Assembly (NCBI GenBank): GCA_021432655.1 | Contig: MU271432.1 | Coordinates: forward strand, 1 to 35,901 | Length of the DNA stretch: 35,901 bases | Direction: 5' to 3' | Source of the DNA: Atractiella rhizophila | Taxonomy: Eukaryota | Shown here: positions 1 to 28,954 of the stretch, piece after piece | Layout: each line of letters opens with the position of its first letter | Position numbering within the stretch: the stretch's first letter is position 1 | Translations under genes and position numbers: made by a program | Notes under the pieces: generated by a model | Databases searched by the model: none | What the model saw: the letters and a program-made list of their open reading frames with translations, nothing else | Told to the model about the DNA's origin: nothing

Positions 1-823
1 AGGTGGAAGGAGGACGTACGCGTTTGACTGAAGGCCTATAAAGAGCGGCGGTTAGGTTGCGTCCCTATAACGACAAAGTTGAGTTCAAGACTCCACTCCA
101 ACTTCAAAAACAAACAGCAACCTAGAAATGTGTTTTAGAAAATATGTAGATCCATCCAGGTCATCACCCCAAGAACCGCCCTGCTCCCCTTCCTACAGAG
201 AGAGAAGGGCTCTAAAGGCAATGGTTTGTACAGGACCCTTCCAATAAATAGAGTTCACTCTTGCGCTCCGTCTGGTCGGCAACAGCGTGTGCCCTAGTTC
301 CTCTCGTGGAAGAAAGGACAGAGTGCCAGGCCGGAATTAAGAAGCGCGATGCAGCAGCATGTTATCTCTAACTCATTTGAATGCCTAAGCAAGATAAACT
401 CATTCATTCTAGCACATTTGTTCAGCAGTTTTAGAGCATAATCAAGAGATGACTAGTTTGAACGTCACGTCTAGTACGCGATGCAAAATAAACCTGACGA
501 ACTCGTGTCCCTCTCAAACCTGCAGAAGAGACGAAGAGTAAGATGCAAGAAACTGCTCACCTCTCTCCACTTCCACTGGCCTCCACCCCTTTCCCCGCCT
601 CACTCTGTTGCAAGGCCAGTTTCCTAACCACCATATTCGGCATGAACTTCATCCTCGTCGTCCCCACTCTGCTCGGCTGCCCTGCCATCGAAGTGATTGG
701 AGCGTTAAGCAGGGCTGAAGTCGCCGTTGGCGCTGGACCTGACGTTGGAGTCGCCGTCCCTGATGTTGAGCCTGAAGGTGTGGGACGCCCGCGACCGCGT
801 CCGCGGGGCTGAGGAGCTGACAT
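1..823 (-). CDS. 5' part of a spliced gene running off the left edge; N-terminus resembles RNA polymerase III subunit RPC4/RPC53 (tentative); snoRNA host gene
   Basis: ATG at 823 opens MSAPQPRGRGRGR...GTTRMKFMPNMVVRK..., donor GTGAGC at 560. A CTAAC branch plus TATAG acceptor (AG at 37-36) gives a 16-nt in-frame micro-exon 35-20 (R-PSVKR), followed by donor GTACGT at 19. The RPC53 assignment rests only on the recalled 'MKFxP' N-terminal motif. Confidence 0.4.
142..425 (-). ncRNA. box H/ACA snoRNA, snR42-like guide for LSU rRNA pseudouridine (yeast 25S U2975 equivalent); 5' end uncertain
   Basis: Minus strand 3' hairpin: lower stem 238-233 with 153-148, upper stems 223-215 with 170-162 and 213-208 with 177-172. 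ACA at 147-145 plus 3 nt; pocket top is 14 nt from ACA. Pocket strands ACCUG (161-157) and GUACAAAC (231-224) pair with rRNA CAGGU-[U]A-GUUUUAC. Candidate H box AGATAA at 367-362. Confidence 0.8.
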
Positions 824-1031: not shown

Positions 1032-1762
1032 ATGTCTATTCCAGCTAATTTTGATGCCGCCAATGCTCCAAACCATGCAGACGTGAGTTCCTTCTCCAGC
1101 GTTGTGAAGAATGTTTGTGGTTTTCTCATTTGGGACTGTAGATTGAGAAGCAGTTTGCTGTCAAGTGTGTCGAATACGCCGAGGTGTATGAAGAGCTATT
1201 GCAGAAGCTCCCACCTCACACTTTGAAACTGACACGGTGACTCTTCTTCCTAGATTGTTGCAGACAGGGTATTGAGGAGGGGAGAAGGTAGACATGATGA
1301 CGAAATCTACTCTGCACTCAAGGAAAAGTTCCCGGAAATTGCTGAGAACAGAGACGGGAAGTTGCAGACGGTAGATGAGGAGGATATGAAGAGTAAGGAG
1401 GGGAAGGAGAAGTGGAGAGATTTCATGAAACCTTTTGAGAAAAGTTAGTCATCATTTCCTCCTCCCCACTGTTCCCAGTCTCCTCAAACGAGAATTAAAC
1501 TCACAAGTGGCTTGGTTGCGGTTGCGGTGTAGAGGTGCAGGATTGGAATTTCGGAACGTTGCTCAAGAAAGACTGCAAAGCCGGATTCACCGAAACAAAC
1601 ACGATCTTCGGTGAGCATTTACTCTTTTATCTCTCTTTCTGCCCAGGAAGCGCGGATGTTGAAGTGAGATGTGGTACAGTGCTCAGACTACAGTTCCTTG
1701 CCTTTGAGATCGCTCGTAATCGGACAGGGCTTAACGATCGCAGCCCCTCCACAGCTTCTTGA
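1032..1762 (+). CDS. PBDC1: PBDC1/YPL225W family protein (polysaccharide biosynthesis domain), about 5 exons
   Basis: Spliced translation gives IEKQFAVKCVEYAEVY...DEEDMKSKEGKEKWRDFMKPFE...DWNFGTLLK...LRLQFLAFEIARNRTGLND, matching the family motifs. Confidence 0.9.
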
Positions 1763-4134: not shown

Positions 4135-5145
4135 GGATATTTGTTGGGTTGCAGGAACAGCAAATGGAGGGATTGAGATGGGATCGAGACCGCGATAGTA
4201 GTTGTTGTGACTTTGGGGAGGTTTAGACTTTCAAAAAAGACTTCGAGTTTCTCGCGTGGCACAGATTAGACCTCACTTTAGCTACATTCCCTTTCTTTAG
4301 GATACCTCTATGTTCTGGTGGTTCTCGTTGGTCGACTTGTTGAGCCAGTACATATTCCAATCCGCCTTCCGTCAATAATACGTTTGGATCTTTATCGCCC
4401 CAAAGGATGGACAGATTTTAGACTCAAAATGGACTTGCACGCTTTCCTTACCTCTAGACCACCTGACACTTCGTCTCACAGTCTTCAGTCCATTTGTCAA
4501 CATCCACTTCACATTCGCATTCAGGGCTTTCTGTCGTTCGTTACAATCTATTCAATCTCGTCCTTCCTTACAATCTCTTTCTGTCAAAATGGACTTGTCG
4601 ATGTCGTTCTAGACTTCTGTAATTTTCTGGGATGTGCTGAGGTAGCTCACATACGGTCCATAGATTTGGAAGCAACATGCTTAAACCCACATTATTCATG
4701 CAGTTCCACTGTTAATGAGTTCATTTGATATTTGAAATCAACATGACTGCCTTTTTGGGAGAATGATACATTGGTCCATTGGTCCGCAGCAACTTGCACA
4801 AACACAAGCGATTGTCTGGAGAGAACAACGCTGTGAATTACTGATTGCCGATTCGAGCCTGCTTAAGCAGAATTTTGATATAAACAGCGGGCTCAAGTGA
4901 GTATTCTTCGTTGGTTTCATTCTTCAACTGGTATCCTGTCTGTTGTTCCAGAATGACTGCTTGTTGTGTCAGTTTACAGACAAAACACATTGTCATACAG
5001 ATATGTCATTATACTAACGCATATCTTGAATGAAAATTTAGTATCAGATATCTTAAGCATCTGACTAGGAGAAATAGCCATAACCATGACAGGCAACAAC
5101 TCACAACTACTACACGCTGACAGATTCATAGGTCATAACAGTACA

Positions 5146-6821
5146 ATGTCGAATACTTCGTCTCCTCTATCTTCCGTTGCCTCGTCACCTCCCGAATCCG
5201 AGCAAGAGGAAATTGAAGGATCCGCCTCTCCCCTTCCTCCCACATCGGCGACGATACGGCCCAAAACCCCTTCGCCAACTCCCTCAGAACCGTCGTCTGA
5301 CTCAGGAACGACTGGCGCTCGAGGGAAGAAACGAGCGCGAGATGAAGACGATGAAAGTTACGACGAAGGACAGACGAAGAAACAGACCCAGTCTGTTAAA
5401 AAGAAACGACAGCTTGCGCCGTCGACAGATGAGGAGAGTGCTGAGGAAACGATTCCGAATAAGGCGAAAGAAACGCTGACCAGCACCAGAAAGACTGCTC
5501 CCAGATCGAAGAACCAGCCATACAAAGCGGGTGCCGCTACCTCCACCGTGAAGAAAACGTCTTCTGCCGCTGTGGCTGCGACGAAATCTACCTCAAAACC
5601 GAACACGCCTTCCACCTCCAACTCTCTGAACCACACACAGAAAAAATCATCTCTCGCTCCCGCCACTGCGTCAACATCGAAAGACAAGGCATTTCTGCCG
5701 TCCCACCAAGCTCTCCCCCTCCGTTCGTCCAACCTGGCCAAGGGTTCTCCCAATCCAACTACTGCAAAACAGCCTTCGACAGCTGTCGCAGGCGCAAAAC
5801 CTACTCCTTTCCCTTCAGCTCGCTCCCTTCCGCCAGCCAAACCAAAACCGTCTCAATCAGGTCCCTCAGCCGCAATGCAAGCAACTACTAAGAAACCACC
5901 TGCCAAAAGTTCGATGGATATGCAAAATGTTGATGTTTTCGAATCCCTTTTCAATTTCGGACCTGCTAAATCATCACCGAAACCACATCCGACTACTCCT
6001 TCTGCAGCAGCTCGAGCAGCAGATAGGGAACGGGAACGGGGGGACACCAAATCTCGTCTGAGAGAAGGAATTTCTACAGTCGCGGCCGCCAGCAACGACC
6101 AAATGGAGGTGGATGCGATGAAGCCGAGCGAGAAATCGGAGAACGCAAGGAATCAGGAAACGGAGACAGCTCAAATTTCTCCTTCCAAACCTGCAGACCC
6201 TCCGAAATACGACCAAACCACGGCAGACTTGAACGCCATCAAGATATCAGTATGGAATTTTGGCTACATTTTGAGCTCTGCTAACATTGGCCCGTATGTG
6301 GTTCTAGAAAGTGAAATCCGCTCCTGCAATAGCAGAGAAACCACAGCGAAGACAAGAAGCGGAGTTTACTACGCAACAGAAACTGTATGCCCAACCCACC
6401 TCCTTCCCCTATGACAACTTTGGCTCAATCTTTGGACTAACAGGGATAAGCTCTACTCTGGTATTCCACAGGCTGCAACCAAAGACTTGCTGCAGACAAC
6501 CCGAAGAGAAGCTCGTCAACTGCATGAAGAACTCAAGGTGTGCTTGCTCTGCTCTGCATTTCTCCTGCCGTCAGGTTGAACAAAGTCCAGAACGGCTCGT
6601 TGGATTTAATGCGCATGCCGATGGAGATGGCCCAACTAGAGGAAGAGTTTAAAACTTACCTGAGGGGATTGCATGACCCTCTCCCCACTGGAACCTTTGG
6701 AATTCAGATTCTGAAGGGAATTGGGAGGGACGGAGATGGCCAGCGTGGAGGATATGATCACGAATATGGCTACGGCAAACAAGGGAGAGATAGCAGAGGG
6801 AGAGACCCTTGGACAGCTTGA
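5146..6821 (+). CDS. hypothetical low-complexity Ser/Pro/Lys-rich protein, probably nuclear
   Basis: Long exon 5146-6249 with basic clusters (RGKKRAR, KKKRQ); three canonical introns join it in frame to ...NGSLDLMRMPMEMAQLEEEF...PWTA* ending at 6821. Confidence 0.65.
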
Positions 6822-18476: not shown

Positions 18477-20328
18477 TCACGTCCGAACATACCTGTCCCA
18501 TCATTAGCCTTGCTGTGTATAGGACAACTATCTCAACAGAACACATACGTTGCATCGATCTGCTTCACCTGGGGAAGCATCAACATCACCTTCCTCCGAT
18601 ACGCCGAGCCTTCCTCCCTCTGCAGTGGGTTTCCCTCAAGGTAGATGGTTGATAAGTTGGGGTTATGTTCCTGGGAGAGAGGGAGGGAATCGAGAGAAGA
18701 CAATTTGTTATCGTTTGCCTGCCCGATCGCATACGATACGTCAGTGAAGGAAGTCGCGGCACTGCGAAGAGGGACAGACCCAAAAGTCCTCTAATTCTGT
18801 GAGATGGGAGAGAGGGGCGATGGTAGCAATTTTATTCGCGGCACAGTCTAAAATCGTGAGTTTTTTCTACGTCCCTTTCAGTCTCCACCAAGATGAACCA
18901 ATAGGTCGCACTCACGTTCTCCTCTAGTCCATCAAGGACTGTCAACCCATTATGACTCAAATACAACTCCTCTAACTTCGTCAGCGTCCTCAGTGTCTCT
19001 CCTATCTCCGTGAGGCGATTACTTTGCACAGAAAGTGTCTTGAGATTGACCAATTCCTCCAATCCGGCTAAAGAAGTAATCTTGTTTTTCCCTAGCCAAA
19101 GCATGGTCAGCGTTGGAGCCAATGGCGATAGGTTTTCAATTTTCCGTAAGCGGTTGCCGCCTAATTCGAGGTATGTGAGGGAGGAGAAGGAGGAGAGATT
19201 CTCGACGCGGGAGATCTTGTTTTGGACAAAGTAGAGGTGGGTGAGTGTTTGCCGGAGGGATGATTGGGAGAGATGGCCATTTATCTTTTTGATCAGATTA
19301 AAGGAGAGGTCGAGACTCCTGTTCTCACCACTCATTAGCAAAATTCGAAATCTGAAAATCAGCAAGGGAGACCAACGTAAGTTTTGGGAGGTCATCCAGT
19401 CCTCCGATTTCCTTTATTTTGTTGTCATATAGATCGATTTCCTCCAACTCCGGCAGATTGGATAGAGGCGCCAGGGGTTTGTCATCTTCTCCTTCGGAAA
19501 GGACGAGTGTAGGAATCTCATTTTGGCGTAAACAGATCCTCTATGGCTGGACTGAGGATAGCAATCAAATAGAAGGGAGCATTACGTACTTTCAGCTTGG
19601 TGAAGGGACGGAAATCTAAACCCTTGAGAGTCTTGATTCGTGCATGGGTGAGCTCAAGGTCTTCACTGTCTAGAGGAACTCCAGCAAGTACGTGATCTGA
19701 GGTCTCTGCCGATCCGCATACAAATTACCACACCTGCATCATTTAATCCAAAACCACTCACCAACATCACCATTTTCGACCTCGGAAACGCGTTTCTGAT
19801 CCTCAAACGCCCTCTCGTCCAACAATTTTTCCTTCCCTTCGCCCTCAGCCCCAGAATCTTCGCTGTCTTCCTCGTCCTCCTTCCGCCCTGCGGCTGGTCG
19901 TTCAGAAGTTGTAACATTCCCCTGAAGGGACGGAAATCTAAACCCTTGAGAGTCTTGATTCGTGCATGGGTGAGCTCAAGGTCTTCACTGTCTAGAGGAA
20001 CTCCAGCAAGTACGTGATCTGATGTCTCTGCCGATCCGCATACAAATCACCACACCTGTGTTGTCTAATCGAAAACCCACTCACCAACATCCCCATTTTC
20101 GACCTCGGAAACGCGTTTCTGATCCTCAAACGCCCTCTCGTCCAACAATTTTTCCTTCCCTTCGCCCTCAGCCCCAGAATCTTCGCTGTCTTCCTCATCC
20201 TTGTTCCGCCCTGTCGCAGGTCGTTCAGAAGTGGTAACATTCCCTTGAACTGTTACCGCGCCGAGTCTAATTGCTCCACTTGCGCTGGATTCTGCAATTG
20301 GTTCGTTTACACCGTTTACGCTAGACAT
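18477..20328 (-). CDS. SDS22: protein phosphatase 1 regulatory subunit 7 (SDS22-type LRR protein), carrying an internal tandem duplication
   Basis: DLELTHARIK, ICLRQNEI, LDLYDNKI, LDLSFNLIKKI, LYFVQNKI, LELGGNRLRKIENL, LWLGKNKI, LSVQSNRL, LYLSHNG, YLEGNP, and terminal KQIDATYVRT*. Confidence 0.92.
19601..20245. repeat. two-copy tandem duplication, units 19601-19922 and 19923-20245
   Basis: Direct alignment by eye: first 100 nt identical, then scattered substitutions and a 1-nt intronic indel; TGAA microhomology at the junction. Confidence 0.97.
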
Positions 20329-28188: not shown

Positions 28189-28954
28189 TTAGTAGAAGGT
28201 GGAAGGCCTCTTGGCGACGAAAAGAGATCGGCTTTTGACGGCACGGTGAGGGAGAGGGAAACGAAGTTGAGGATCGAGGAGTTGTTTGATGTTTGCCCGG
28301 CGGACGTCGCTCGTCTTCTCCAACTCTGTCACTCGAAGAATCTGCTTTCGCCATTAACCGACACAGCGGAATTGAAGCTTAGGATAACGAACCTGGATGG
28401 ATCTAAAGCGAGCGCGATGACGAGCAGCCATGTCCTGGTAGAGGGACTCGACGGCATCAGCTCTCGAGAGCTCCCTGAACTCCTTGTACATATTGTGTGT
28501 TCCAGAACGAGAGTCGTATCGCAGCCAGATTCCAAAGTTCTTCACTTTCTCGGGCTTTTTCTCGTGAATCTTGCAACACATTTCTCAACCATTTGCATGA
28601 ACCTCGAATAGAGAGGCGTACTTGATTGATGGAAACCAACTCTCCATGAGCCTTCTTGATTTTTCGCAGCTTCCTCAAATAATACCAGAACCTCGACTTG
28701 GCGACCACATCGTTAGGAGCAAAGATGCGCATGCGGTAAAGCTTTGGGGATGCATCTTTCTCATCAGGGAGCCTTCTCCCGATGACCTGATATTCTTTTG
28801 AGGAAACATGTCAATGACAGCACGGAGAGGTCGCAAGTGAGGCTTGGAAGATCGGTTCGAAAGAGCTTGACATTGCCTCTCCTCGCCCCTTTGATCTCCC
28901 AGACAAATACCGAGACAGAGCTGACTGGAACATACCTTGATATCTGCCAACCAT
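28189..28954 (-). CDS. RPL20: 60S ribosomal protein eL20 (L18a)
   Basis: [87 protein letters not shown]; three introns. Confidence 0.97.

Follow-up and report, generated by a model that had tools for sequence, protein, structure and literature searches.

The DNA analysed here, referred to as the window, is a stretch of 35,901 nt from the fungus Atractiella rhizophila (contig MU271432.1, assembly GCA_021432655.1). At its low-numbered end a gene is read on the minus strand, and a candidate box H/ACA snoRNA would sit downstream of the first exon of this gene, in sequence that is transcribed but non-coding. The features at the level of the gene are the following:

561..823, minus strand: exon 1 of the same-strand gene (ATG at 823-821; 87 codons plus 2 nt)
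36..560, minus strand: putative intron holding the snoRNA (525 nt; GUGAGC at 560, CUAAC at 55-51, UAG at 38-36)
65..121, minus strand: nested GU..AG intron inside the putative long intron (57 nt), skipped in the RNA contig X6
142..347, minus strand: proposed mature box H/ACA snoRNA (about 206 nt; presumed 5′ end near 347-350, presumed 3′ end at 142)

The product of exon 1 matched no Pfam family and is without a longer relative; its sole protein relative is its own 104-aa prediction, P0003. An assignment of the host protein as an RNA polymerase III subunit found no support and was dropped. Two sequencing runs, X4 and X5, cover exon 1 only. A hand count gave seven differences between X5 and exon 1, five of them at third codon positions.

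The preliminary description of this DNA had placed the RNA in an intron from 560 to 36. The reading frame and the splice signals fit such an intron, as the frame remains open when 561 is joined to 35. The contigs of run X3, which comes from a relative (organism B), break at 558/563, and the RNA contigs of X3 and of X6 both stop at 38. The case is weakened by the X3 piece over positions 1-34, whose depth is 12 compared with 168 for exon 1, and by the end of the window at position 1. Against the long intron stand a rival intron, 560→494, and the nested intron 121→65. The former belongs to the gene model P0003, which stops near 445, so that the snoRNA would sit in the 3′ UTR. The P0003 tail differs from X3 at 7 of 49 positions and does not look coding, because only three of these differences fall on third codon positions. 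In the neighbouring PBDC1 gene, introns were estimated by eye at about 60 nt.

The nested intron was seen in X6, a soil metatranscriptome contig of 172 nt with no differing letter and a depth of 3.3, in which 266→122 is joined to 64→38. The skipped 57 nt have the ends CT..AC on the plus strand, that is GU..AG on the minus strand, which shows that transcription of the region runs on this strand. Because the contig passes 142 and continues to 122, it represents a precursor or an isoform and not the mature RNA. Hence, the small intron 121→65 had been removed from an RNA that still held the snoRNA part 266→122.

The same contig also suits a reading in which the segment is a conserved element of the host transcript, such as part of an alternative exon ('poison' or otherwise non-coding), a 3′ UTR structure or a splicing-control structure, and only looks like an H/ACA RNA by accident. 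The part retained in X6 has stops in all three frames across the joint, and the P0003 model with its end at about 445 would make the element part of a 3′ UTR. We regard such an element as very unlikely. It leaves unexplained that two pockets, placed 14 nt from an ACA and an AGA-type box, match two known pseudouridine sites, and that a second copy in X3 resembles the locus only in hairpins and boxes, with the likeness ending just after the ACA. The genomic position does not discriminate between the readings, because fungal H/ACA genes occur in introns as well as in 3′ UTRs; of 20 H/ACA snoRNAs of N. crassa in PMC2780460, two are intronic and two are found in 3′ UTRs of protein genes. Returning to the snoRNA reading, the RNA is probably intron-encoded, with the putative 525-nt intron 560→36 as its host.

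Two guide hairpins and their boxes

The proposed RNA consists of these elements, given in 5′ to 3′ order of the transcript:

263..347, minus strand: 5′ guide hairpin (lower stem 347-341/269-263 of 7 bp, pocket, upper stem, apical stem-loop)
334..340, minus strand: 5′ pocket, 5′ strand UUAAUUC (U335-A338 pair with AAUU of the SSU site; unchanged in X3)
270..276, minus strand: 5′ pocket, 3′ strand ACCAGAC (C275-C270 pair with GUCUGG of the SSU site; unchanged in X3)
256..261, minus strand: H-type box AGAGUG (A1, G2 and A3 agree with ANANNA, whereas the sixth base is G instead of A)
239..255, minus strand: hinge, unpaired or with a 4-bp mini-stem that is lost in X3 (X3 differs at 246 and 250)
148..238, minus strand: 3′ guide hairpin, folding as a single hairpin (G236>A is the only X3 difference)
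224..232, minus strand: 3′ pocket, 5′ strand UGUACAAAC (AAAC, 227-224, pairs with GUUU of the LSU site; unchanged in X3)
154..161, minus strand: 3′ pocket, 3′ strand ACCUGGAU (ACCUG, 161-157, pairs with CAGGU of the LSU site; unchanged in X3)
142..147, minus strand: ACA box (147-145) directly after the last pair G238.U148, and tail UAU (144-142)

We read this layout as hairpin-hinge-hairpin-ACA, the usual two-hairpin kind, starting near 347 and not at 425. The two hairpins and the hinge make up the minimum-energy fold of 347→142, in the window as well as in the X3 version, with an unremarkable folding energy (z = -1.7). In H/ACA RNAs the top of the pseudouridylation pocket lies 14-16 nt from the H or ACA box. 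The top pairing base was found 14 nt from the box in both pockets, namely 161..148 for ACA and, in the pairing register, 275..262 for AGAGUG.

For the 3′ part, a minus-strand hairpin at 148-238, closed right before ACA plus three nucleotides and with an internal loop whose top is 14 nt from ACA, had been noticed from the letters alone, and both features were recovered in the fold of 238-148. This hairpin has an energy of -37.7 kcal/mol (z = -1.9), and 9 of 200 shuffled sequences fold as well. Its lower stem of 6 bp (238-233/153-148) runs from G238.U148 to C233-G153 and contains two G.U pairs. The two pocket strands face each other as an internal loop, with A161 at the top.

The 5′ part differs from the earlier proposal, in which 257-325 was an extra branched domain closed by a CACUCU/AGAGUG stem and the RNA reached 425. 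Instead, we find a 5′ guide hairpin, 347-263, with its own pocket and an H-type box, followed downstream by AAGAGUGA. The closing stem (325-320/261-256) would bury the H box. It does not appear in the minimum-energy fold and carries a penalty of 8.6 kcal/mol when imposed; in X3, U257>C disrupts one of its pairs. Likewise rejected were the 5′ hairpin and H box formerly placed at about 362-425. This segment lies in the flank, where X3 differs at 25 of 211 positions, and has diverged like it; two of its five outer pairs are lost in X3 through uncompensated differences at 406 and 380. Because of this divergence and the two broken pairs, we infer that the mature RNA starts near 347 (347-350) and extends to 142. 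An ANANNA at 367-362 survives in X3, and the box alone does not exclude the former 5′ hairpin.

An exact ANANNA was not found between 262 and 239. The spacing of 14 nt from C275, the same as in the 3′ hairpin, places the H-type box at AGAGUG (261-256), whose departure from the canonical ANANNA at the sixth base counts against the assignment. In fungal H boxes, according to the excerpt of PMC5824354 used here, A1 and A3 are highly conserved, the second base is G in nearly 80% and the sixth A is more variable.

Conservation in a relative and a second copy

From run X3, a 440-nt contig covers 121-558 with 31 substitutions and two insertions. The differences are distributed unevenly: six fall within the 206 positions of 347-142 and 25 within the 211 positions of 348-558 (Fisher p = 5.7e-4), and they are hence four times rarer in the proposed RNA than in the flank. 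Within 142-347 they were found at 344, 301, 257, 250, 246 and 236, while 133-235 is free of differences. The start of the conserved part coincides with the start of the second, 5′ hairpin at 347. None of the 31 pocket positions and none of the three ACA positions differ, so that the pockets and the ACA box are conserved in this one relative.

All three differences in stems keep a standard pair: C344>U gives U.G with G266, G301>A converts G.U311 to A-U and G236>A converts G.U150 to A-U. These kept pairs provide only mild support, because all three changes are transitions, which often preserve a pair by chance. At 257, X3 has C, which is the fifth (N) position of the H-type box.

In addition, a 796-nt contig of X3 holds a second copy, matching 144-175 with four differing letters and 255-290 with three. 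The matching blocks correspond to the 3′ halves of both hairpins plus the boxes and are separated by 67 letters, compared with 79 in the window. The ACA is unchanged, and the likeness stops one nucleotide after it, at 144, where the contig departs from the window. Judged by eye, apical stems can still arise from the 30 loose letters past 290; two compatible changes, each on one side, preserve the outer stem, and a new inner stem of 5-6 bp, perfectly paired, is possible. The comparative support comes from a single relative plus a second copy that is partial, and a covariation test would need more sequences than these. A 21-letter stretch of the 3′ hairpin had no match in a metagenome scan, which therefore yielded no further orthologues.

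Candidate targets in the ribosomal RNAs

Possible targets were read from rDNA of metagenome loci (at least 109) and not from the own rRNA of A. rhizophila. The loci were fetched with the LSU sequence considered here, and this sequence is therefore present in the scanned loci by construction. Against LSU GACAGGU[UA]GUUU the 3′ pocket forms 5 + 4 = 9 Watson-Crick pairs, leaving the bracketed U-A unpaired. The pairing of ACCUG with CAGGU and AAAC with GUUU had been proposed earlier, and when the pocket was scanned against rRNA this was the best-scoring site in all five long eukaryotic rDNA loci. The identification of the unpaired U with yeast 25S-2975 also agrees with the portion of the table in PMC8307265 that we used, which lists this position of the peptidyl-transferase centre as a pseudouridine with snR42 as its guide and marks it as conserved in human.

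Taken alone, the LSU match is weak evidence, because 73 of 2000 shuffled 3′ pockets reach at least 9 pairs somewhere in one 5716-nt rRNA and two window hairpins, the 3′ hairpin itself included, reach this number. The window contains 1149 ACA triplets, 35 of which follow a comparable hairpin with a pocket, and just two of these 35 reach at least 9 pairs: the 3′ hairpin 238-148 and an unrelated hairpin inside an ORF, ending at 18800 on the minus strand, which attains 10 pairs with rRNA. The bare motif is expected 0.25 times per window and occurred in 21 of 100 shuffles. An exact 15-nt repeat of 147-161 was noticed at 28391-28405, with neither ACA nor hairpin alongside, and was treated as a chance occurrence.

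These counts, together with the weak z-scores, are what one would cite for a functionless chance hairpin in a long intron. Such a hairpin would hardly account for a region in which X3 differences are four times rarer than in the flank (p = 5.7e-4) and stem pairs are kept, for the existence of a second copy in X3, or for a second pocket with an independent match, and we consider it the least credible of the explanations. With good confidence, we assign 347→142 on the minus strand as a box H/ACA snoRNA.

The independent match is that of the 5′ pocket. In the register UUAAUU/CCAGAC it forms 6 + 4 = 10 Watson-Crick pairs with GUCUGG[UU]AAUUCC in helix 34 of the SSU in the metagenome rDNA, for which A276 and C334 have to be unpaired at the top. 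The main register, UUAAUUC/ACCAGAC, gave no rRNA site with at least 7 pairs in locus L005. When two registers were allowed, 16 of 2000 shuffled pockets did as well as the 5′ pocket anywhere in the scanned rRNA.

In each of the 12 SSU copies among the loci listed, the targeted SSU uridine follows the second C of GGCCG at a distance of 30 nt. The modified nucleoside ac4C sits in a CCG motif. Yeast 18S has ac4C1280 and Psi1290 and is without modification between 1290 and 1415, so that the equivalent of human Psi1367 is unmodified there. For human 18S, the consulted portion of PMC6182160 gives ac4C1337, Psi1347 and Psi1367. The offsets +10 and +30 both fall on a U only if the acetylated C is the second C. 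From the offset of +30 (ac4C1337 to Psi1367) it follows that the 5′ pocket points at the equivalent of human Psi1367, the 18S:U1367 for which the relevant entry in PMC10835520 names SNORA15 as the guide.

The sequence of helix 34 varies among the loci. Two fungus-like SSU loci, L062 and L074, which match the ITS1F primer with one mismatch, carry the GC..GC form GUCUGCUUAAUUGC, with which the 5′ pocket would lose its top pair. Ten of the 12 SSU copies have the GG..CC form, which, among the loci listed, occurs only in those not matching the fungal primer. To our knowledge, Basidiomycota carry the GG..CC form of this helix.

It may also be that the H/ACA RNA is real and that the LSU match, the SSU match or both are coincidental, with the RNA directed at another target (an snRNA or another rRNA site) or being an orphan. 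The pairings comprise just 9 and 10 pairs, which the 73 and 16 shuffled pockets out of 2000 also achieve, as does, with 10 pairs, the unrelated hairpin of the window. Furthermore, the sites come from metagenome rDNA instead of the rRNA or snRNAs of A. rhizophila, and the variant in L062 and L074 fits the 5′ pocket less well. Nevertheless, both best sites are uridines known as pseudouridines in other eukaryotes, and few of the 1406 U in the scanned rRNA are such sites. The two pockets moreover have the 14-nt spacing in common, and their four strands are unchanged in X3. Coincidental targets are therefore unlikely in our view. Judged by complementarity, the 3′ pocket is a likely guide for the LSU uridine equivalent to yeast 25S-2975. 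For the 5′ pocket we favour, on balance, the SSU helix-34 uridine as its predicted target, on the assumption that a G precedes the target U in the SSU of A. rhizophila.

Relation to known guides and a working model

The preliminary description had proposed an equivalent of snR42 and a comparison with Rfam. In the whole window, nothing reached the Rfam gathering score. Searches of 1-900 and 125-365 with Rfam 15 detected no H/ACA family at E ≤ 10; the sole matches at this threshold were to lncRNA and C/D models at chance level. Of the proposed equivalence, the shared LSU target stands by complementarity, and likeness at the level of the family found no support among the Rfam 15 models. The resemblance to snR42 and to SNORA15 is thus one of targets, predicted ones in both cases.

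With S. cerevisiae snR42 the RNA shares the class and, if the rRNA is taken as conserved, the target uridine in the LSU. In contrast, no likeness in sequence or covariance model was found within the scope of the Rfam 15 models, and the other hairpin of the A. rhizophila RNA has a plausible target at a site unmodified in yeast. The A. rhizophila RNA, about 206 nt long, lies downstream of exon 1 of a gene and is probably intronic, whereas snR42 is reportedly about 350 nt long and is said to be an independent gene. According to the part of PMC5824354 used here, the snR42 family (HACA_33) is reported in Taphrinomycotina and Saccharomycotina and not in Pezizomycotina.

The 5′ pocket would share its SSU helix-34 target uridine with human SNORA15 (ACA15), given a G before the target U in this fungus. 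SNORA15 is an intron-encoded H/ACA RNA, and the A. rhizophila RNA is probably likewise. The entry in PMC10835520 gives CCT6A as host gene, a length of 133 nt and a single listed site; the A. rhizophila RNA is longer, has a second (LSU) pocket and lacks an Rfam match. It resembles the H/ACA set of N. crassa, an ascomycete, in that this set, in the portion of PMC2780460 used, has sizes of 160-309 nt and includes members encoded in introns or 3′ UTRs. Differences are that neither target appears in the rows of the N. crassa list consulted and that here the intron itself holds a spliced 57-nt intron. The sections consulted of PMC12723226, on rRNA pseudouridines of Chaetomium, contain nothing on the LSU or the SSU site. 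A literature search turned up no paper on H/ACA snoRNAs of Atractiella, which is not proof of absence.

Beyond its two targets, the RNA is a plain member of a well-known class, an ordinary H/ACA snoRNA that was previously unrecognisable. Homology searches do not easily find box H/ACA guides. In several Pucciniomycota, according to PMC5824354, at least 86% of the H/ACA snoRNAs appear to be lost, although the short bipartite pockets are conceded there to limit detection. A guide in A. rhizophila that is invisible to Rfam argues for divergence, and not disappearance, of the pucciniomycete H/ACA guides, and the RNA at 347→142 offers a concrete seed for finding the remaining ones. The two predicted pseudouridines would lie in the peptidyl-transferase region and in helix 34, and budding yeast lacks the second of them. 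If the combination of the two targets is old, it would help to trace the shuffling of guide functions between snoRNAs.

In our working model, the segment 347→142 would be trimmed, after splicing, out of what is most likely a 525-nt intron (560→36). We infer that the RNA would then be bound by the snoRNA proteins Cbf5, Nop10, Nhp2 and Gar1, and both modifications as well as this pathway of release are to be taken as predictions. The 3′ pocket would place the LSU U (25S-2975 in yeast numbering) of the peptidyl-transferase region in the active site of the pseudouridine synthase Cbf5, while the 5′ pocket would pair with GUCUGG and AAUU flanking the U-U in SSU helix 34. More tentatively, and with less than even expectation, we suggest that a single pucciniomycete RNA, with an H box ending in G, joins the LSU target of snR42 with the SSU target of SNORA15, that the guides of this lineage have diverged beyond recognition instead of being lost, and that the release of this one may depend on an intron that holds a spliced intron. 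Removal of the inner 57 nt shortens the distance from the ACA box to the outer branch site from 90 nt to about 33 nt.

Small intron downstream of the proposed snoRNA

Between the proposed two-hairpin box H/ACA snoRNA (347 to 142, minus strand) and the end of the putative long intron that contains it (560 to 36), a further and much shorter intron was observed:

65-121, minus strand: 57-nt intron with GU..AG ends, spliced out in an RNA contig of the soil metatranscriptome run X6

The snoRNA region upstream of this intron was kept in the same RNA contig. On the minus strand, the GU of the small intron (121-120) is directly preceded by UAG (124-122), and this juxtaposition of a 3′-splice-like site and a 5′ splice site at 124-120 resembles recursive splice sites. 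About 90 nt separate the ACA box (147-145) from the CUAAC element of the long intron (55-51); with the small intron removed, only about 33 nt would lie between them. In X3, a sequencing run of a relative, one contig ends at exactly position 121 and overlaps the next contig by 30 letters.

Gene model P0003 and contig depth

The sole protein relative of exon 1 (823 to 561, minus strand) is P0003, a predicted A. rhizophila protein of 104 aa, in which this exon is joined to RFILHRVLDVTFKLVIS via an intron from 560 to 494 on the minus strand (region 445-560). The RFILHRVLDVTFKLVIS tail differs in X3 at 7 of its 49 positions, and no branch-site-like CUNAY was found near the acceptor of the P0003 intron. 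P0003 is probably a mis-predicted protein.

Contig depth in X3 was 168 over exon 1 (contig range 563-873), 23 to 42 for the downstream sequence (121-558), a seven-fold difference, and 12 for positions 1-34; given such uneven depths, X3 appears to be an RNA and not a DNA data set. Exon 1 may have its main partner exon beyond the start of the window.

Second copy in the relative and probable chance matches

A diverged second copy of the snoRNA is present on a 796-nt X3 contig. Likeness of at least 80% is restricted to the 3′ halves of both hairpins and their boxes; compared with the snoRNA at 347 to 142, the copy has a spacer shortened by 12 nt.

Two matches were noted elsewhere in the window:

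28391-28405, plus strand: exact 15-nt copy of minus-strand 161-147
about 18800-18890, minus strand: hairpin with pocket and ACA that can pair with an SSU site of the metagenomic rDNA locus L005 through 10 Watson-Crick pairs

The former spans the 3′ pocket strand and the lower stem and reaches into ACA by one A; AAG follows instead of CA, and no hairpin adjoins the copy. About 0.01 such 15-nt matches are expected by chance, and the copy is probably a coincidence. The hairpin lies within ORF 18832-19395 and was taken as a chance match, providing an empirical example of a false positive in pocket-versus-rRNA pairing.

Neighbouring genes

1032-1448, plus strand: divergently transcribed gene of the PBDC1 family, whose last exon matches Pfam PF04669 (E = 6.7e-13)
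5086-6414, plus strand: ORF with two A. rhizophila database matches

Two A. rhizophila database proteins, 100% and 93% identical to the ORF at 5086-6414 and both lacking Pfam domains, point to a recently duplicated, lineage-specific gene. The PBDC1-family gene apparently possesses two introns of about 60 nt each.
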